A stretch of DNA of 64,000 bases from an uncultured Bacteroides sp. (GCA_964461785.1 CAYWWE010000002.1:3609-67608), one strand, 5' to 3'. Counted from the stretch's first letter, positions 4,312 through 55,233 are shown. Made by a program: numbers and translations. Notes: generated by a model not told the origin, from the sequence alone.

Positions 4312-6033
4312 TTATCTGGACCCTTCGTTGGGAAATCGCCAGACAACAGCGTTGTATGGCCGGAGGAAAGTGTGGAAAGGGGTGTCGGGTGAGAACACTT
4401 TCTTTTCTTTCTCGCCGGTGATCAGTTCGGTGGCCAGGCAAGGAGTGTCGTCGGCCTTTATGCCAAGCACTTCAAATGCGTGCGCAGGGATATTGATGCG
4501 CAGGTCGGCCGACTCCGAGCCGAAATTGACGGCAACGAGGAGGGTCTCTGTAGACGAGGAGCGCAGGAAGGCATACTGCCGGTGAGGGTCAAACGATGGA
4601 TTTTCGTAGTTGACATACATAAGATCGAAGAAGCGGCCTTCCGTGATGGCTTTCTGCGATGCTGCTATCTGGAGTATGTTGATATACTGACCGCGGAGCC
4701 ATTGCTCGCGAGGGGTAAGATGCTCGGACGAGGGGCATCCGGGGCCATCTCCGGTGAGCCAGCGGCGTATCGTGCCGACGCTCCAGTAGTCGAAAATCGT
4801 TGTTCGCCCGTCGCGGCCCGAATATCCTTCCTCGTCGGTGCCTGACTCGCCTAATTCCTGTCCCATATATATCATCACGGGACCAGTGTTGATCATTGAC
4901 GAAACAACGAGAGAGGGAATGATCTTGGCAGGATCTCCGGCATACTGGGGTGAGGCAAAACGCTGCTCATCATGATTTTCAAGGAAGTTGAGCATGTGAT
5001 TGCCCAATCCCTCGGTCTGCTGCCAGCAAGATGTGAGTGCTGCTGCCGACACTGAGCCGGTCTGGATGGCACGCAGGGTATCATAGAGCCCCGACTTATC
5101 ATAGAGGTAGTCGAATCCGCCCACCGTTATGAACGGGCGGTAGAGATGCAGGTCATAGAGCTCGGCAATGAATATTATGCCGGGATATTCCGCCTTGATC
5201 TTGCCGATAGCCCAATGCCAGAACTCGAGGGGCACCATGTGGACCATATCGCAGCGGAATCCGTCGACACCCTTCGATGCCCAGAAACGCAGGATATGAT
5301 ACATCTTCTCCCATGTGGAGGGTATGGGGTCGAAATGGCGTGAGCCGTTGGCCGGGTCAACACCATAGTTGAGTTTGACGGTGTCATACCAGTCGTTGCG
5401 CGACGGGAATGCGTTGTAGCAATCATTGCCGGAGGCTTTGGCCGGAAATTCGACATAGGCTTTCTTGCCTTCGCCGAGATCTACATCATACGGGGCAAAG
5501 AGCTGCCGGGTGATGTAGTAGAAATTATTGGCGGGCGAGAAAAACATATCGGTGTTGTCGCCGGATCCGAGATCGCCGGGAGCGTCGGCAGGAGCCGAAT
5601 CCGAGGCATAGCGCCGGGCAACATGGTTGGGCACGAAATCGATTATGACTTTAAGGTCGGCCTGATGGGTGCGGGCAACCAGCTGCTCGAACTCCGACAT
5701 ACGCCCGGCCGGGTCGACTGCCAGATCGGGATCTATATCATAATAGTCACTTATGGCGTAGGGAGAGCCTGCCTGACCCTTGACGACGTATGGATTGTCA
5801 GGAGTGATGCCGAAGGCAGAGTAGTCGGGGCAATGGGCGTGTTCGATGACTCCGGTATACCAGACGTGACTGACCGAGAGCTCCTTGATTCCCTTAAGGA
5901 TCTCGGGAGTGATGTCGGCGAGTTTTCCGCAGCCGTTTTCCTCGATTGTTCCCGATGGTATGCATTCCTCGTTGTAGTTGGTAAACAGTCGGGGGATCAG
6001 TTGGTAGATGACTGGCTTGCGGGAATGATTCAT
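4312..6033 (-). CDS. GH13 alpha-amylase family glycosidase
   Basis: DFVPNH, GFRCDM (nucleophile), IAELY (acid/base), NHDE. Confidence 0.9.
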   Translation of the reverse strand: MNHSRKPVIYQLIPRLFTNYNEECIPSGTIEENGCGKLADITPEILKGIKELSVSHVWYTGVIEHAHCPDYSAFGITPDNPYVVKGQAGSPYAISDYYDIDPDLAVDPAGRMSEFEQLVARTHQADLKVIIDFVPNHVARRYASDSAPADAPGDLGSGDNTDMFFSPANNFYYITRQLFAPYDVDLGEGKKAYVEFPAKASGNDCYNAFPSRNDWYDTVKLNYGVDPANGSRHFDPIPSTWEKMYHILRFWASKGVDGFRCDMVHMVPLEFWHWAIGKIKAEYPGIIFIAELYDLHLYRPFITVGGFDYLYDKSGLYDTLRAIQTGSVSAAALTSCWQQTEGLGNHMLNFLENHDEQRFASPQYAGDPAKIIPSLVVSSMINTGPVMIYMGQELGESGTDEEGYSGRDGRTTIFDYWSVGTIRRWLTGDGPGCPSSEHLTPREQWLRGQYINILQIAASQKAITEGRFFDLMYVNYENPSFDPHRQYAFLRSSSTETLLVAVNFGSESADLRINIPAHAFEVLGIKADDTPCLATELITGEKEKKVFSPDTPFHTFLRPYNAVVWRFPNEGSR

Positions 6034-49835: not shown

Positions 49836-51008
49836 ATGGATATGTCAGAAGCAAAGAAAAAAGTTTTCGTGTCGGGCTGCTACGATATGCTCCACTCGGG
49901 TCATGTGGCTTTCTTCAAGGAGGCATCTAAGTTTGGCGACCTCTATGTAGGCATAGGGTCGGATGCTACTGTTGCCGAACTCAAACACCGGCAGACGGTC
50001 TGTTCCGAAAACGAACGCCTTTACATGGTCAAGGCCATCCGCTATGTTACCGACGCTTATATCAACCGCGGAAGCGGAATGCTTGATTTTCTCGATACTC
50101 TTGATATCGTGAAACCAGACATATTTGTGGTTAACACCGACGGCGGAAGCGACGCTAAACGCAAGCTATGTGAGGATCGCGGTATAGAATATATAGAGCT
50201 TCAACGGATGCCGGATGCCGGGCTTGAGGCGCGGTCTACAACTTCGCTCCGCGCCGGCGCGAAGTCCAACATTCCTTACAGAATAGATATTGCGGGGACA
50301 TGGATCGATCAGCCATACGTGTCCAGACTCGGGGCCGGATGGGCCATTACGGCGTCGGTAGAGCCAACGATTGAGTTTAACGAGCGCAGCGGCATGTCGA
50401 CCTCCACCCGCAATGCAGCCCGGAAGATATGGCCCTACCAGCTCCCCGACTACCATGAGGAGCAGCTCGCCAAACTTCTTTTCTGTCTGGAAAACGATCC
50501 GGAGAACGACGGACATGTATCAGGCGCGCAGGATGCCATAGGAATATGTGTGGCAGGTCTCAGCCGACATTATTATAACGGCCACTACTGGCCCGAGAAG
50601 ATCGAGAGCTGCAACGACGAGGATGTACTGTCGTGGCTCGAGAGCCATATATGTCTCGTCGAGATGTTTCCCCGCCGAGAGGGATGCAACGTGACCGAGG
50701 GGATGGATCTGACAGCAGAAAAGGTAGCGGCCCTGACGGACGCAGCCGACCGCTGCTGGGATGCCATAATGGATAGAGATCTTGACCGCTTTGCAGCTGC
50801 GTTCCGCGACTCCTACGAGGCACAGACAGCTATGTTTCCCGCAATGATACAGCCCGGAGTGGAGGAGCATATCGCGCACTGGCGCGACAAAGCCCTCGCG
50901 TGGAAGATGCTCGGAGCAGGCGGCGGAGGCTATCTGGCTCTTGTCGTAGACCGGATCCCTGATGAGGGCGTGATTCCTATCAGGATCCGCCGCAAGGGGA
51001 TGTGTTGA
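49836..51008 (+). CDS. HxGH nucleotidyltransferase fused to GHMP-kinase-like domain
   Basis: GCYDMLHSGH, RSTT; then PYRIDIAG, SGMSTS, GAQDAIG, KMLGAGGGGY; TACCTTTG at 49815-49822. Confidence 0.85.
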   Translation: MDMSEAKKKVFVSGCYDMLHSGHVAFFKEASKFGDLYVGIGSDATVAELKHRQTVCSENERLYMVKAIRYVTDAYINRGSGMLDFLDTLDIVKPDIFVVNTDGGSDAKRKLCEDRGIEYIELQRMPDAGLEARSTTSLRAGAKSNIPYRIDIAGTWIDQPYVSRLGAGWAITASVEPTIEFNERSGMSTSTRNAARKIWPYQLPDYHEEQLAKLLFCLENDPENDGHVSGAQDAIGICVAGLSRHYYNGHYWPEKIESCNDEDVLSWLESHICLVEMFPRREGCNVTEGMDLTAEKVAALTDAADRCWDAIMDRDLDRFAAAFRDSYEAQTAMFPAMIQPGVEEHIAHWRDKALAWKMLGAGGGGYLALVVDRIPDEGVIPIRIRRKGMC

Positions 51009-51030: not shown

Positions 51031-51999
51031 TCACACTGTGACGACTATTTTGCCTATCTCTCCACGCTGCTCTGCCAGTTCGTGGGCGGCGGCTATATCT
51101 TCAAGCCTGAATGTGCGGGCAATGATGGGATGTATCCGTGCGCGGTCGATCAGATCCATCATGTCGGTGATTTCTTTCTGTGTCGGGGAATTGCTGTAGA
51201 ATCCGGTGAGATATACCCCGGAAGGAATTTCCTTGATCGGATCAAAATCTTTCATGCCGAATATGCCTCCGAGCAGGCCGGTGTGACATACGATTCCGTG
51301 CAACGATGTAAGCCGCAGCGACTCAAGCAGGGTAGCGGCACCGATCAGTTCGAGCACTTTAGTTGCACCATAGGGGTATTTATCGAGAAATTGCTGTCTT
51401 AGATCGGGCCCTTCGATCATGGCGTCGTCTGCTCCATATTGTCTCAGAAGACTGCACTTTTGTGTGCTGCGGGTGGTGGAAACGACTGTGGCTCCGATTG
51501 CCTTGGCAAGCTGCAGGGCTGCCAACCCCACCGTGGAGGTGCCACCACGGATAAGCAGAAGATCGCCTGACTTCAGCTGCAACGATCCTACGAGCGAGCC
51601 GTAGGCCGTGTAAAAGGTCTCCGGAATAGCGGCAAGTTCCTGCCAGTCAAGACTACTGTTGACAACAAACAGATGGCTTGCCGGCAAAAGGGCGTATTCC
51701 GAGTAGCTTCCGTCGAAACTGCGGCCCATTCCACCCATCAGGGCAATCACGCGATCGCCCTTCCTGAATCGGGTGTCGGAGGGATCTTCAACCACACCTA
51801 CACATTCGATGCCGGGTATGATCGGTTTCCGGATATATGGCCGGGCTATCTCAAACTGACGGAGAAGTATCTCGGAATGATTGATGCCGAAGGCTTTGAC
51901 TTTGACAAGCACCCATCCTGGGCGCACCGTAGGGATGGCTCTTTCGGTTAATTTCATTTCTCCGGCCTTGCAAGGCTCGGTGAGTACAACAGCTTTCAT
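51031..51999 (-). CDS. Zn-independent MDR-family (quinone) oxidoreductase
   Basis: VLVKVKAFGINHSE, PGIECVG, DGSYSEY, RGGTSTVG, GKIVV; no catalytic Zn Cys/His set; ATG overlaps the rSAM stop. Confidence 0.88.
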   Translation of the reverse strand: MKAVVLTEPCKAGEMKLTERAIPTVRPGWVLVKVKAFGINHSEILLRQFEIARPYIRKPIIPGIECVGVVEDPSDTRFRKGDRVIALMGGMGRSFDGSYSEYALLPASHLFVVNSSLDWQELAAIPETFYTAYGSLVGSLQLKSGDLLLIRGGTSTVGLAALQLAKAIGATVVSTTRSTQKCSLLRQYGADDAMIEGPDLRQQFLDKYPYGATKVLELIGAATLLESLRLTSLHGIVCHTGLLGGIFGMKDFDPIKEIPSGVYLTGFYSNSPTQKEITDMMDLIDRARIHPIIARTFRLEDIAAAHELAEQRGEIGKIVVTV

Positions 52000-53015
52000 A
52001 CTTCCTTCCAGCATTGGGGGTCAGGTGCATAAAACGAGCGGTGGTAGCCGTATGCCACAGCCGGGCATCCTCGGCAGAAGCGGAGCAATTCGCATCGCGA
52101 GCATTTCTCAAATTTCTCATGCTGACGATAGGCCTCCATTTCTTTTCCGGTCCAGAGATCATGAATTGGAGTGTGGAAAAGATTGCCTACTACGCTATCA
52201 AAGCGGCGGCAGGCCATGACACTGCCGTCGGGCTGAATGGTGAAATGGCAGTCGCCGCAGTGACATCCGTCGTAGATAGCCTCAGGATCGCTGTTGGCCG
52301 GAATCTGAAACAGCCCTTTCTCATAAAGATACAGGGTCCACAGATGATCCTTGAGGTTGAAGACGGTCGACGAATCCTTATGCTGCTCAAACTTTTTCCA
52401 GATGCGGTCGAGGAAGTCGCGGTATTCAAGCGGCGAGATATGAGTAGATTTTTCTTCGGAGGTGGGGCAATAACGTCCGAAGGCAAACAGGTCGACCCCT
52501 TTGTCAACTACCAGGTCAATAATGTCGGGGATCTCGCTGATATTTGTACCGGAGACGGTTGTCATTACCGCAACCCGTATACCGGCTTTTTTCAGGACGT
52601 CAATCTTGTCGATGGTAGTGTCGAACGATCCGGGCTTTCGAATGGAGTCGTGGGTGTCTCTCATTCCGTCGAGCGACAACTGATATTTGGCGCATCCCAT
52701 GTCTTTCAGGCGGATGCACACCTCATGGGTGAGATGAAAAGGATTGCCAAGGATCGTGAATGGAATATCACGCTCCTTAAGGAGTGAGAGAATCTCCCAA
52801 AAGTGTCGGTGAAGGATGGGATCGCCACCTGTTATATAAAAATATGGTAGGCGGTGTATCTTCCGGCACATCTCCTCACATTGAGCGACAACCTCCTTCG
52901 CCCTTTCGAGTGATATCTCGATCAGGTGTGGATGTCCTTCCGAGAAAATGTAGCAGTGTTCGCAGCGCTGATCGCAGCTATCGGTTATGTGCCACTGGAA
53001 AGCAAAATATTCCAT
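51996..53015 (-). CDS. Radical SAM/SPASM peptide maturase (ACGX-system type)
   Basis: QWHITDSCDQRCEHCY (CxxxCxxC), ITGGDP, SLDG; SPASM Cys array GCHCGDC, MAC, CSRCELLRFCRGC, DPQC. Confidence 0.92.
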   Translation of the reverse strand: MEYFAFQWHITDSCDQRCEHCYIFSEGHPHLIEISLERAKEVVAQCEEMCRKIHRLPYFYITGGDPILHRHFWEILSLLKERDIPFTILGNPFHLTHEVCIRLKDMGCAKYQLSLDGMRDTHDSIRKPGSFDTTIDKIDVLKKAGIRVAVMTTVSGTNISEIPDIIDLVVDKGVDLFAFGRYCPTSEEKSTHISPLEYRDFLDRIWKKFEQHKDSSTVFNLKDHLWTLYLYEKGLFQIPANSDPEAIYDGCHCGDCHFTIQPDGSVMACRRFDSVVGNLFHTPIHDLWTGKEMEAYRQHEKFEKCSRCELLRFCRGCPAVAYGYHRSFYAPDPQCWKEV

Positions 53016-53141
53016 ATCATAGATTTATGTTCCGTATTTAATGGTTTCTCGCCATGGGGCGAGCCGTGATAAAACGACAGACTCCGACAGAAAGGCGGGT
53101 TGCTCAGCTGCCGGAGTTGTCGGGGAGGGTACTGGACGGAG

Positions 53142-53315
53142 TTATTTTTCTCCTGCACCGCAAGCCGAGCCACATGCTGCGGGCTTGGGTTCGGGTTTTT
53201 CCTCGCCGGCTCCGCAGGCAGAGCCGCATGCGCCTGAGGGTGTTTCGGTTGCGGCCTGAGCACAGAGATATGCCTGTGCGGTGTGCTTTACGGCACTATT
53301 GGCAATACGCTTCAT
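53142..53315 (-). CDS. ACGX-repeat RiPP precursor peptide, 57 aa (not in ORF track)
   Basis: Hand translation MKRIANSAVKHTAQAYLCAQAATETPSGACGSACGAGEEKPEPKPAACGSACGAGEK*; directly upstream of and co-oriented with the rSAM/SPASM gene. Confidence 0.88.
   Translation of the reverse strand: MKRIANSAVKHTAQAYLCAQAATETPSGACGSACGAGEEKPEPKPAACGSACGAGEK
53148..53231 (-). repeat. Two 30-nt direct repeats encoding ACGSACGAGE (53202-53231 and 53148-53177)
   Basis: gcatgcggctctgcctgcggagccggcgag vs gcatgtggctcggcttgcggtgcaggagaa; 7 differences, all at third codon positions. Confidence 0.95.
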
Positions 53316-53360
53316 AATCGGATGGGGTTGATTAGAGGGTTAAACATATTTTTTCAATGA

Positions 53361-53368
53361 CAAAATTA
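53361..53368 (-). promoter_or_regulatory. -7 promoter element of peptide-rSAM-oxidoreductase operon
   Basis: TAATTTTG on minus strand, 45 nt upstream of the peptide ATG. Confidence 0.65.
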
Positions 53369-53394
53369 ATCTGTTATGGTCTATTGATCAAGAG

Positions 53395-53430
53395 CTTACG
53401 AAAGGGTAACCAAGTAATATATTTGTTACT
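53395..53430. promoter_or_regulatory. Candidate HxlR-family operator
   Basis: CTTAC-N6-GTAAC, AGTAA-N8-TTACT and GTAAC-N14-GTTAC inverted half-sites between divergent promoters. Confidence 0.45.
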
Positions 53431-53518
53431 AATAATGATTTTCAGATGTTTGCATGAGATAAAATTTTTATAAAAAATTATTATTTGCCAGAGGGTTGCA
53501 ACTGTCTGCAAGATGGAG

Positions 53519-53526
53519 TAACTTTG
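53519..53526 (+). promoter_or_regulatory. -7 promoter element of hxlR-like gene
   Basis: TAACTTTG, 19 nt before ATG 53546. Confidence 0.7.
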
Positions 53527-53545
53527 CGGATAAACAGCAAAGAGA

Positions 53546-53917
53546 ATGAGAAGAAAAGAGCAGCTTAATTCCATCATAGAGATCTGTCCGGTCAGAAATG
53601 TTGTGGCCCGTTTCGGCAATAAATGGGCTTTGCTTGTCATACTGGTCCTGAGCGAGAATGACCCGATCCGGTTCAATGATCTGGGACGTAAGATACCTGA
53701 CATTTCATCGCGGGTGCTATCGTCGACACTGAGGACTCTTGAAGCCGACGGGCTTGTCAGCCGCGAATACTTTCAGGAGGTTCCTCCGAGAGTGGAATAT
53801 TCGCTTACCGACACAGGGCGATCACTGGTGCCGATCATTGTGCAACTCACTGAGTGGGCTCAAAAAAACATGAAGACCATTATCGAGCATCGACGTCTCA
53901 GCACTCCTGAAAGCTGA
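53546..53917 (+). CDS. HxlR/DUF24 winged-helix transcriptional regulator
   Basis: CPV...GNKW, RFNDL, ISSRVLSSTLRTLEADGLV, VPPRVEYSLT. Confidence 0.95.
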   Translation: MRRKEQLNSIIEICPVRNVVARFGNKWALLVILVLSENDPIRFNDLGRKIPDISSRVLSSTLRTLEADGLVSREYFQEVPPRVEYSLTDTGRSLVPIIVQLTEWAQKNMKTIIEHRRLSTPES

Positions 53918-53988: not shown

Positions 53989-55233
53989 ATGGCATCCGAT
54001 TCATCTGTAAAGCCGGCACAGACCACTACCGCCGACTTATCTTCTGCTCCCAAACATTATGGCCTCTTTGTGGTGTTCATTGCCATAATAGGCGCATTCT
54101 CCTCGCTCGTCAACGATATGTACCTCCCGACAATTCCTTCGATGATGAAGGAGTTTCACACTACGCCTTCGATGACCCAGATGGGCATATCGATGGCTAT
54201 GATCGGAATGGGTCTCGGCTCGGTATTATGGGGCTCGGCAAGCGACCACTACGGGCGCAAACCGATTTTGATCGGGTCGCTGATAATATTTGTGATAGCA
54301 ACTGCGCTCTCACTGTTTTCGCGCAATATAACTTTCTTCATAATCTGCCGTCTGTTTCAGGGGCTTGGAGCCGGTGGAGCAATGGTGCTATCCACCTCTA
54401 TCCCGGCCGATGTCTATATGGGGCGTCAACTTGCCAAACTCATGGCTATTGTAGGTGCCATCAACGGTGTGGCACCGGCTCTCGGGCCTGTTGTCGGTGG
54501 TTTCATGGCCGATTGGGTCGGATGGCATGGAATATTTGTTGTTCTCCTCGTGGTAGGGGTTGTAATGACTTTCTGGACCACACATTATACTGAGACGCTC
54601 CCTCCGGCGCGCCGTCTTAAGGCACAGAGTCTCAAGGGCTACGTCAAAGCCTACCGATCGCTGTTTGCCAACGGTCGCTTCATGCTCTATGTCACGATCA
54701 AAGCTGTTGCGATTGGTCTGCTGTATGCCTATATATCGTCTGCGCCCTTTATCATACAGACACACTATGGATTCAGCGCCATGACTTTCGGACTGATTTT
54801 CGGAGGAAACGCACTTGCCATGAGCATAGGTTCATCGCTCGCACTGAAATTTAAGGTGATGAAGCAGGCTATGGTCGTCGGTTGTTTCGGTATGTTTGTG
54901 TTCGCCGTAGCAGAAGCGTTCGTGATGTGGCATGAAACACCGTTTATCTATTATGAACTATGCGCCATACCGATGCTTCTGTTCTCAGGCATGATCTTCT
55001 CAAGTGCCAACACACTTTCGATGGAGGTAGGACGTGATGAGGCCGGTACAGCTTCGGCTATCCTCAGTGTGGTGAAGTATGCTTTCGCTGCCGTTGTGTC
55101 GCCTCTCGTAGGTCTCGGAAATATCTTCCACTCCACGGCAATAGCATACGTTGCCGTGACCTCGGTAGCGGTAGTGCTCGCATGGCGCGCCATACGCCTC
55201 GCTCCTTTAGCCGATATGGAGAGAACTAAATAA
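53989..55233 (+). CDS. Bcr/CflA family MFS efflux transporter
   Basis: DMYLPTIP, SDHYGRKP, RLFQGLGAG, PALGPVVGG; about 12 TM. Confidence 0.92.
   Translation: MASDSSVKPAQTTTADLSSAPKHYGLFVVFIAIIGAFSSLVNDMYLPTIPSMMKEFHTTPSMTQMGISMAMIGMGLGSVLWGSASDHYGRKPILIGSLIIFVIATALSLFSRNITFFIICRLFQGLGAGGAMVLSTSIPADVYMGRQLAKLMAIVGAINGVAPALGPVVGGFMADWVGWHGIFVVLLVVGVVMTFWTTHYTETLPPARRLKAQSLKGYVKAYRSLFANGRFMLYVTIKAVAIGLLYAYISSAPFIIQTHYGFSAMTFGLIFGGNALAMSIGSSLALKFKVMKQAMVVGCFGMFVFAVAEAFVMWHETPFIYYELCAIPMLLFSGMIFSSANTLSMEVGRDEAGTASAILSVVKYAFAAVVSPLVGLGNIFHSTAIAYVAVTSVAVVLAWRAIRLAPLADMERTK

Follow-up and report, generated by a model that had tools for sequence, protein, structure and literature searches.

A 64,000-nucleotide stretch of DNA from an uncultured Bacteroides sp. 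(GCA_964461785.1, CAYWWE010000002.1:3609-67608; hereafter, the window) was analyzed at positions 51,031 to 53,917. This locus is a four-gene cassette composed of a thiol-type regulator of the HxlR family, a cysteine-repeat peptide, a radical S-adenosylmethionine (SAM)/SPASM enzyme, and an NAD(P)H reductase of the medium-chain dehydrogenase/reductase (MDR) type. It belongs to the database-defined ACGX system, which is catalogued by NCBIfam/TIGRFAMs. On the minus strand (51031-53391), a promoter-like element was followed by the peptide open reading frame (ORF), a 126-nucleotide spacer, the radical SAM/SPASM gene, and the MDR gene (Table 1). The alignment of the MDR protein to TIGR02824 began at residue 6, so the likely MDR start was the ATG at 51999-51997. 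It overlapped the TGA stop of the radical SAM gene (51998-51996), which gave an ATGA coupling at 51999-51996. An earlier note, made from the sequence alone, had listed these minus-strand features, this coupling, and a divergent HxlR gene, and all of them were recovered at the same coordinates.

Table 1. Features of the ACGX cassette, in positions of the window
Feature	Position	Strand	Description
MDR NAD(P)H oxidoreductase, quinone-oxidoreductase/zeta-crystallin type	51031..51999	-	322 amino acids from ATGA-coupled start; longest ORF to 52014
ACGX radical SAM/SPASM enzyme	51996..53015	-	339 amino acids; PF04055 and PF13186 matches
Two stem-loops, peptide-enzyme spacer	53043..53122	-	Hairpin 1, 53122-53075, then GUUUUAU; hairpin 2, 53065-53043
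ACGX-repeat precursor peptide	53142..53315	-	57 amino acids; MKRIANSAVKHTAQAYLCAQAATETPSGACGSACGAGEEKPEPKPAACGSACGAGEK
Bacteroidetes-type promoter, peptide operon	53361..53391	-	-33 TTG, 53391-53389; -7 TAATTTTG, 53368-53361; 20 nucleotides between
Candidate HxlR operator	53395..53430	.	ATTAC-N14-GTAAG (53418-53395) overlapping AGTAA-N8-TTACT (53430-53413)
Likely -7 box, divergent HxlR promoter	53519..53526	+	TAACTTTG; 20 nucleotides before HxlR ATG
HxlR/DUF24 winged-helix regulator	53546..53917	+	123 amino acids; single Cys, C14; PF01638

Precursor peptide and radical SAM/SPASM enzyme

The enzyme and the peptide both matched the profiles of the ACGX system. The enzyme scored 573.8 bits against TIGR04340 (curated cut-off 400), and its residues 2-339 aligned with profile positions 1-341, which is the full length. 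The peptide scored 29.8 bits against TIGR04341 (cut-off 28). The ACGX-type pair of peptide and maturase that the earlier note had proposed was thus supported by this TIGRFAM search. The peptide score was marginal because the peptide had only two units and a short leader; the peptides of related loci scored 33-79 bits. The peptide family is also listed as PF27855 Target_ACGX in newer Pfam releases, and our Pfam scan of the window peptide gave no match. Close homologues of the enzyme were publicly annotated as 'radical SAM/SPASM domain protein, ACGX system'. The peptide gene (end 53142) was located directly upstream of the enzyme gene (start 53015) on the same strand, and related loci with an identified peptide kept this order.

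Related loci were sampled by similarity to the window's enzyme, and the co-occurrence counts given below are not a census. The window peptide contained a leader with the motif KHTAQAYLC and two ACGSACGAGE units with an EKPEPKP linker between them. In the family, leaders carried the motifs 'LNxLNGW' and 'RSAQxY[LF]', one or both, and the Muribaculaceae leader retained the second alone (KHTAQAYLC). The leader showed no hydrophobic segment resembling a signal. The ORF had no in-frame stop, and all Cys codons were TGT or TGC; hence, it contained no selenocysteine codon. Pairwise comparison of 44 distinct 57-codon homologues gave 14118 synonymous and 1792 non-synonymous codon differences in the core, and the invariant core residues were each encoded by 2-4 different codons. 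This synonymous excess indicated that the ORF is translated and under purifying selection. Judged from codon usage, the selection is strong, and chance does not account for the small ORF.

The repeat unit was examined in 139 distinct peptides containing 654 core Cys. It read [S/A/G]-[A]-C-G-[A/S]-[G/A] and continued with a second Cys (double unit, ACGSACGAG) or with Asp/Glu. Lys/Pro/Glu-rich linkers joined the units, and each peptide had 2-8 core Cys. Around the core Cys, position -1 was Ala, Ser, or Gly in 99% of cases, position +2 was Ala, Ser, or Thr in 99%, and position +3 was Gly, Ala, or Ser in 96%. Such small residues on both sides would fit a backbone chemistry around Cys. Since single-Cys units were common, each Cys appeared to be a self-contained site. 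Asp or Glu was present at +4 of the unit-final Cys in 347 of 376 cases (92%). One whole clade had no acid at this position (ACGAAK..., ...ACGAK), and the first Cys of double units had Cys at +4. CX3[D/E] was therefore rejected as a universal acceptor motif.

The profile closest to the enzyme after TIGR04340 was SbtM (TIGR04082), with 189.2 bits, below its cut-off of 350. The next family scored 141 bits, and lower scores were obtained for the mycofactocin maturase (91 bits), SkfB (TIGR04403, 60 bits, cut-off 300), and PapB (NF047865, 58 bits, cut-off 340). Ten relatives were scanned, and SbtM was also second-best for 8 of them, among which were the seven closest; in the two exceptions it ranked lower (P0121) or fell below the reporting threshold (P0143). 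By profile score, SbtM is the closest characterised family to the ACGX enzyme, and its product is a heterocycle and not a thioether. The SbtM/SbtMa thio(seleno)oxazole system was reportedly described by Lewis et al. in 2021. SbtM takes four hydrogens from a Cys or selenocysteine that follows Gly and forms a thio(seleno)oxazole, with abstraction of a C-beta hydrogen as the proposed beginning (PMC9204691; PMC11002830). The profile match spanned positions 198-504 of 516, and the window enzyme did not have the N-terminal extension of approximately 195 amino acids. It also carried no N-terminal peptide-recognition (RRE) domain: the CX3CX2C motif began at residue 14, with 13 residues before it.

Twelve Cys were invariant among 30 diverse members of the family. 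C14, C18, and C21 were those of the SAM cluster, C108 was also invariant, and the other eight were in the SPASM region (C251, C253, C269, C305, C308, C314, C317, and C335). These eight would be enough for two fully ligated auxiliary clusters. An AlphaFold model of the enzyme had a predicted local distance difference test (pLDDT) value of 85. The top Foldseek matches were SPASM enzymes (SkfB, SuiB, and anSME, and PqqE too), with TMq of 0.74 for SuiB and 0.69-0.72 for anSME (TMt 0.64-0.68 for anSME). Based on the model, anSME would be the fold match that shares the RRE-less size of the ACGX enzyme. The best sequence match in the PDB was SkfB. The PDB sequence and fold searches recovered only generic SPASM enzymes and did not discriminate the chemistry.

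Some relatives of the enzyme differed in form or context. N-terminal extensions of 270-470 amino acids were found in P0127, P0132, and P0161. A distant radical SAM enzyme (L175:540-1893) scored 429 bits on TIGR04340. Its gene adjoined two methyltransferase genes and was preceded by that of a different Cys-rich peptide (...NTQCNCGGDCNSECGEGECNDGGCNI) with no TIGR04341 match.

Regulator, reductase and conservation of the module

The divergent regulator matched PF01638 with 101.3 bits. Its best PDB matches were B. subtilis YybR (85 bits) and HxlR (77 bits), followed by weaker matches to YodB and QsrR. YybR is HypR, and both YybR/HypR and HxlR are activators. The window protein had exactly one Cys, at position 14, which agreed with the divergent single-Cys HxlR regulator of the earlier note. 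All 133 distinct ACGX-linked HxlRs shared this N-terminal Cys, which was the sole Cys in 96 of them. From the single Cys in the window protein and in these 96, we infer sensing by a one-Cys switch through alkylation or thiolation.

The consensus of the Bacteroidetes -7 element is TAnnTTTG. Bases 53368-53361 read TAATTTTG and fitted this consensus. Across 66 aligned Muribaculaceae intergenic regions, the TA and TTTG columns were kept in 90% or more, and the -33 TTG, 20 nucleotides upstream of the -7 box, was kept in at least 70-90%. The consensus fit and the conservation supported the promoter that had been placed at 53361-53368. The -7 box of the HxlR gene was seen in the same alignment as the conserved block CAAAGTTA. 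An inverted repeat, GTTAC-N14-GTAAC with at most one mismatch, was present in 41 of the 66 Muribaculaceae relatives compared with 2.2 in shuffles. Among the relatives bearing it, the spacer was 14 nucleotides in 37, and the -33 TTG was 3 nucleotides further on in 36. The window copy, ATTAC-N14-GTAAG, stopped 3 nucleotides before the -33 element. A perfect repeat, AGTAA-N8-TTACT (53430-53413), was unique in the 64-kb window, with a chance expectation of 0.02. It was rejected as a family operator, being found in 7 of 133 divergent loci (its shorter core, GTAA-N8-TTAC, in 11 of 133). Because it was not conserved, GTTAC-N14-GTAAC was taken as the operator candidate instead. This candidate is upstream of the -33 element and adjoins it, a position that might, as a weak inference, suit an activator.

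The spacer between the peptide and enzyme genes folded with a minimum free energy of -40.3 kcal/mol (z = -3.76), and 0 of 200 shuffles were as good. In the spacers of 78 related loci, the median z was -4.0 and strong folding was observed in 91% despite differing sequence and length; these relatives were judged against mononucleotide shuffles, which are a somewhat lenient control. The stem-loops previously noted after the peptide gene were found again in the window, and a hairpin at this place is conserved. A gene for a 125-amino-acid cupin_2 protein was present in approximately 20 of 162 loci, either between peptide and enzyme or after the MDR gene (L008:5617-5997). It was between peptide and radical SAM gene in L018, L019, L025, L027, L041, L052, L056, L057, L065, L071, and L076, and 'long spacers' of roughly 460 nucleotides were explained by this inserted gene.

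The reductase contained the domains PF08240 (ADH_N), PF00107 (ADH_zinc_N), and PF13602. Its score against TIGR02824 was 182.8 bits, below the PIG3 subfamily cut-off of 296.8. All of its best PDB matches were quinone oxidoreductases, with 4dup the first (E 7e-36). Zinc alcohol dehydrogenases carry Cys-His and Gly-His-Glu at the zinc-ligand sites, where the window protein, by inspection, read GINHSE and PGIECVG; the zinc-ligand motifs were gone. The protein listed as an MDR oxidoreductase in the earlier note is of the zeta-crystallin/quinone-oxidoreductase type. It shared 51-58% identity with MDRs from ACGX operons of three other lineages.

Neighboring genes were tallied in 80 loci from species genomes and 80 from metagenomes, counting only loci with enough flank. 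HxlR was present within 2.5 kb upstream of the radical SAM gene in 60 of 60 genome loci and 42 of 42 metagenome loci (102/102). An MDR or a nitroreductase was present within 4 kb downstream in 51 of 51 and 37 of 37, respectively (88/88). The two reductases were almost mutually exclusive and never both missing. In a 159-enzyme tree, at least 9 switches of reductase type were counted, and supported branches forced at least 6 of them. Each type was found with every leader and core subtype of the peptide, and a link of reductase type to peptide subtype was rejected for this reason. HxlR, peptide, radical SAM enzyme, and MDR were all found in Treponema, Erysipelotrichaceae, and Caldicellulosiruptoraceae loci, sometimes with extra genes between them. 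Cross-lineage identity was 66-70% for the radical SAM enzyme, 49-65% for the MDR, and 42-73% for HxlR, which indicated that enzyme, MDR, and regulator are orthologous parts of one module. HxlR and the reductase are constant parts of the ACGX system in Bacteroidota, Spirochaetota, and Firmicutes, and the context of the window locus is the family norm.

These counts changed two points of the earlier note. It had described the ACGX genes as embedded in an HxlR/quinone-reductase module; this is no unrelated surrounding, as HxlR and reductase accompanied every locus counted. It had also placed the family mostly in Firmicutes, and this did not hold in a scan of species genomes that gave 343 stretches encoding relatives. 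The family is widespread, with hits in 3304 protein clusters (E<=1e-20), in these 343 stretches of species-representative genomes, and in over 536 stretches from metagenomes. The source assembly (2.6 Mb, 97% complete) contained a single copy of the cassette. The nearest relatives were Muribaculaceae metagenome-assembled genomes (MAGs), several labelled rodent gut. Organism labels of MAGs were unreliable: record titles filed Muribaculaceae-type cassettes under 'uncultured Staphylococcus', 'Prevotella', and 'Alistipes' (L013-L060). Occurrence was patchy: within the genus, 3 of 37 sampled genomes carried the cassette, and within the family, 19 of 301 species (6%) and 12 of 35 genera did. The flanking genes varied between relatives, and the cassette had no guanine-plus-cytosine anomaly. 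Recent horizontal acquisition, as judged by base composition, was rejected because this content was normal. The cassette itself appears to be inherited and transferred as one unit. A literature search found no publication on the ACGX family, nor one joining HxlR with a radical SAM/SPASM enzyme. This agreed with the previous statement that the family is not chemically characterised. Annotation pipelines already name ACGX, and no report on its product or role was found; the window locus shows its minimal four-gene form in Bacteroidales.

Other recurrent genes were identified by clustering all ORFs of the 162 loci. They encoded a SirTM-like sirtuin (28 loci), a cupin (20), a macrodomain protein (19), a PNPOx-like protein (14), and DUF5131 (11). 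No recurrent protease, transporter, leader peptidase, or immunity gene was found by this clustering, nor was a metal-sensing regulator recurrent. The sirtuin-like gene, present in many ACGX operons (281 amino acids; L088:6034-7682), had no Pfam match and scored 194 bits to the S. pyogenes Sir2-family protein 5a3a, which we take to be SirTM. It was usually paired with the macrodomain gene (28 and 19 of 162 loci), which suggests that an ADP-ribosylation writer/eraser pair may be attached to the ACGX system. In the source genome, a paralogue of the window HxlR was found on contig C132 (L178:2202-5559; gene 5146-5559). It was 48% identical and shared the N-terminal Cys. It was divergent from an operon encoding an NmrA-like NAD(P)H-binding protein, a PNPOx-like protein, a macrodomain protein, and a SirTM-type sirtuin, the last being 53% identical to one inside a Treponema ACGX operon. 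Elsewhere the SirTM/macrodomain/flavin genes are fused to ACGX operons, and here they are at a separate locus with a paralogous HxlR.

Two genes flanked the cassette in the window. A Bcr/CflA-family efflux gene of the major facilitator superfamily (MFS; 53989-55233, plus strand) began 71 nucleotides past the HxlR stop and may share a transcript with the regulator. It was rejected as an exporter since it adjoined no related cassette. A gene for a 390-amino-acid protein (49836-51008, plus strand) converged on the end of the ACGX operon at a distance of 22 nucleotides. The N-terminal domain of the protein was like that of cytidylyltransferases, its C-terminal part bore a weak resemblance to fucokinase/GHMP kinases, and its gene was not conserved next to related cassettes.

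Possible function of the module

The regulator and an interchangeable reductase were obligatory, and export and processing genes were absent, which suggested that the radical SAM-modified peptide is used inside the cell. As the four parts travel together across phyla, internal stress protection was likelier than a secreted antibiotic. We put at about even the chance that the cassette is an HxlR-switched cytoplasmic stress module, in which the radical SAM enzyme oxidatively modifies the cysteines of Ala-Cys-Gly and the product works with an obligatory quinone-type reductase. By analogy with SbtM, the modification would most likely be a thiooxazole, a tentative assignment that we hold with somewhat less than even confidence.

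In such a module, the one-Cys HxlR would bind the inverted repeat adjoining the -33 element. Alkylation or oxidation of its N-terminal Cys by an electrophile or oxidant, under quinone, aldehyde, hypochlorite, or disulfide-type stress, would alter its state, and this change would turn on the peptide-radical SAM-MDR operon. The hairpin after the peptide gene might keep transcripts of the peptide more abundant than those of the enzymes. The RRE-less enzyme would read the leader (K-H-T-A-Q-A-Y-L) and modify the Cys of every Ala-Cys-Gly. Its first chemical step would most likely resemble that of SbtM and anSME, with the C-beta hydrogen taken from the Cys, and the likeliest product would be a 5-thiooxazole formed with the carbonyl of the preceding Ala. 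The modified peptide would be neither cut nor exported, and would remain in the cytoplasm, its reactive sulfur groups strung along a Pro/Lys/Glu-rich spacer. There, it could buffer electrophiles, oxidants, or soft metals. A GshA-type ligase was not found in the 97% complete source genome, which agrees with a requirement for some other thiol buffer and is no proof of it. The NAD(P)H reductase, MDR here and nitroreductase elsewhere, might reduce the same quinone-type stressors, or might recycle or finish the modified peptide. Few RiPP-like systems (RiPP, ribosomally synthesised and post-translationally modified peptide) are known to act in this way, as a radical SAM-modified peptide for stress protection inside the cells of anaerobes. 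If the thiooxazole chemistry is true, SbtM-type chemistry, so far a narrow selenoprotein niche, would extend to thousands of anaerobes of gut and sediment.

A more specific form of the stress-module reading, which we consider unlikely, is that ACGX peptides are ribosomal poly-thiol redox buffers matured by the radical SAM enzyme. Each Ala-Cys-Gly unit would be converted to an aromatic thiol (5-thiooxazole), kept reduced or finished by the dedicated NAD(P)H reductase (MDR or nitroreductase), with the one-Cys HxlR as an electrophile-sensing switch. If so, strict anaerobes without glutathione would have an inducible gene-encoded counterpart of glutathione, phytochelatin, or ergothioneine.

Several points weigh against the stress-module reading. 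The likeness to SbtM was below the cut-off (189 vs 350 bits), and radical SAM chemistry is poorly predicted at such a distance. The acid at +4 in 92% of units also fits thioethers of the PapB type from Cys to Asp/Glu. The universal reductase is a putative partner of the peptide, and HxlR-type regulators often adjoin such reductases without any peptide. Cytoplasmic retention is based only on the absent export genes and on a leader with no signal-like segment. In the window, each operator half-site had one mismatch to the family consensus.

Alternatively, the enzyme may form thioether crosslinks of the sactipeptide or ranthipeptide type, such as one from the unit-final Cys to the Asp/Glu at +4, as PapB does at CX3D. 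Small rings would then take the place of free sulfur groups, and the role could stay intracellular. Asp or Glu stood at +4 of 347 of the 376 unit-final Cys, and CGAGE occurred twice in the window peptide. PapB, SkfB, and other thioether-forming SPASM enzymes were detectable homologues, and SkfB was the best PDB sequence match. However, PapB scored 58 bits compared with 189 for SbtM. One clade had no acid, and the first Cys of a double unit had Cys at +4; the acid may merely begin the charged linker. The ACGX enzyme also had no RRE domain, unlike known sacti- and ranthipeptide synthases. We regard the thioether explanation as rather unlikely, although it is the rival we rate highest.

The obligatory reductase could point to another role, in which the modified peptide is a catalytic redox cofactor or electron carrier like mycofactocin and PQQ (pyrroloquinoline quinone), charged with NAD(P)H by the MDR or nitroreductase. 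Both mycofactocin and PQQ are also made by SPASM enzymes, and such cofactor-making homologues were detected here (mycofactocin maturase, 91 bits; PqqE in the fold search). The reductase was present in 88/88 loci and was replaced, not lost, at least 9 times, which suggested a mechanistic link beyond co-regulation. Against this, the 162 loci had no recurrent peptidase to free a small cofactor, and the 2-8 core Cys together with a peptide-boosting hairpin fit a stoichiometric product. MDR and nitroreductase differ in hydride chemistry, yet they interchange with every peptide subtype. A redox cofactor is therefore improbable in our judgment. We consider far less probable still, and very unlikely overall, that the peptide is a conventional secreted antimicrobial RiPP (bacteriocin) with HxlR and reductase adjoining it incidentally. 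The locus shows the classical layout of precursor plus radical SAM gene, a hairpin follows the precursor gene, and in the source genome the MFS efflux gene (53989-55233) follows HxlR. That gene was missing from all related loci, however, and no transporter, leader peptidase, or immunity gene was recurrent among the 162 loci, whereas HxlR and a reductase were present in every locus with enough flank. The core was acidic/basic, Pro-rich, repetitive, and variable in copy number, and known bacteriocin cores are unlike it.

Comparison with known systems

The regulatory part of the cassette resembled the YodB/QsrR/HypR/HxlR systems of Firmicutes. These regulators sense quinones, diamide, hypochlorite, and formaldehyde via an N-terminal Cys, and their regulons control nitroreductases, azoreductases, and quinone reductases. 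The window shared with them the regulator family, the N-terminal Cys, and the divergent layout beside an NAD(P)H quinone-type reductase or nitroreductase. In contrast to HypR and YodB, the window HxlR did not have the second Cys for an intersubunit disulfide. To our knowledge, no radical SAM enzyme or repeat peptide belongs to these regulons.

Peptides with a protective role are known from another enzyme class. Bufferin precursors bear export signals. Bufferins and related thiooxazole metallophores are ribosomal peptides in which Cys are converted to 5-thiooxazoles via MNIO enzymes, and bufferins guard the producer from copper stress and are not competitor-killing (PMC11626156, PMC12668002). 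The oxygen-dependent MNIO/DUF692 class is unrelated to the ACGX radical SAM enzyme, and ACGX loci had no recurrent metal-sensing regulator.

Among radical SAM enzymes, anSME (PDB 4K36-4K39) acts on the Cys C-beta hydrogen. It shared with the ACGX enzyme the RRE-less SPASM architecture, a similar length, and Cys for two auxiliary clusters. However, identity was only approximately 16-18%, the repeat peptide targeted by the ACGX enzyme lacks the C-x-P/A-x-R sulfatase motif, and no sulfatase was nearby. The likeness to SbtM extended over the whole catalytic and SPASM region (189 bits), and the substrate Cys is likewise among small residues. The site differed, being Ala-Cys-Gly in ACGX and Gly-Cys or Gly-selenocysteine in SbtM, and the window had neither a selenocysteine codon nor the N-terminal extension of approximately 195 amino acids.

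The closest system was ACGX itself (TIGR04340 rSAM_ACGX and TIGR04341 target_ACGX). The window shared both profile matches, the gene order, the ACG-repeat core, and the Cys pattern, and nothing defining differed. It represents the minimal Bacteroidales/Muribaculaceae form of this system, with a short leader of only the 'RSAQxY'-type motif, two double units, and an MDR reductase.

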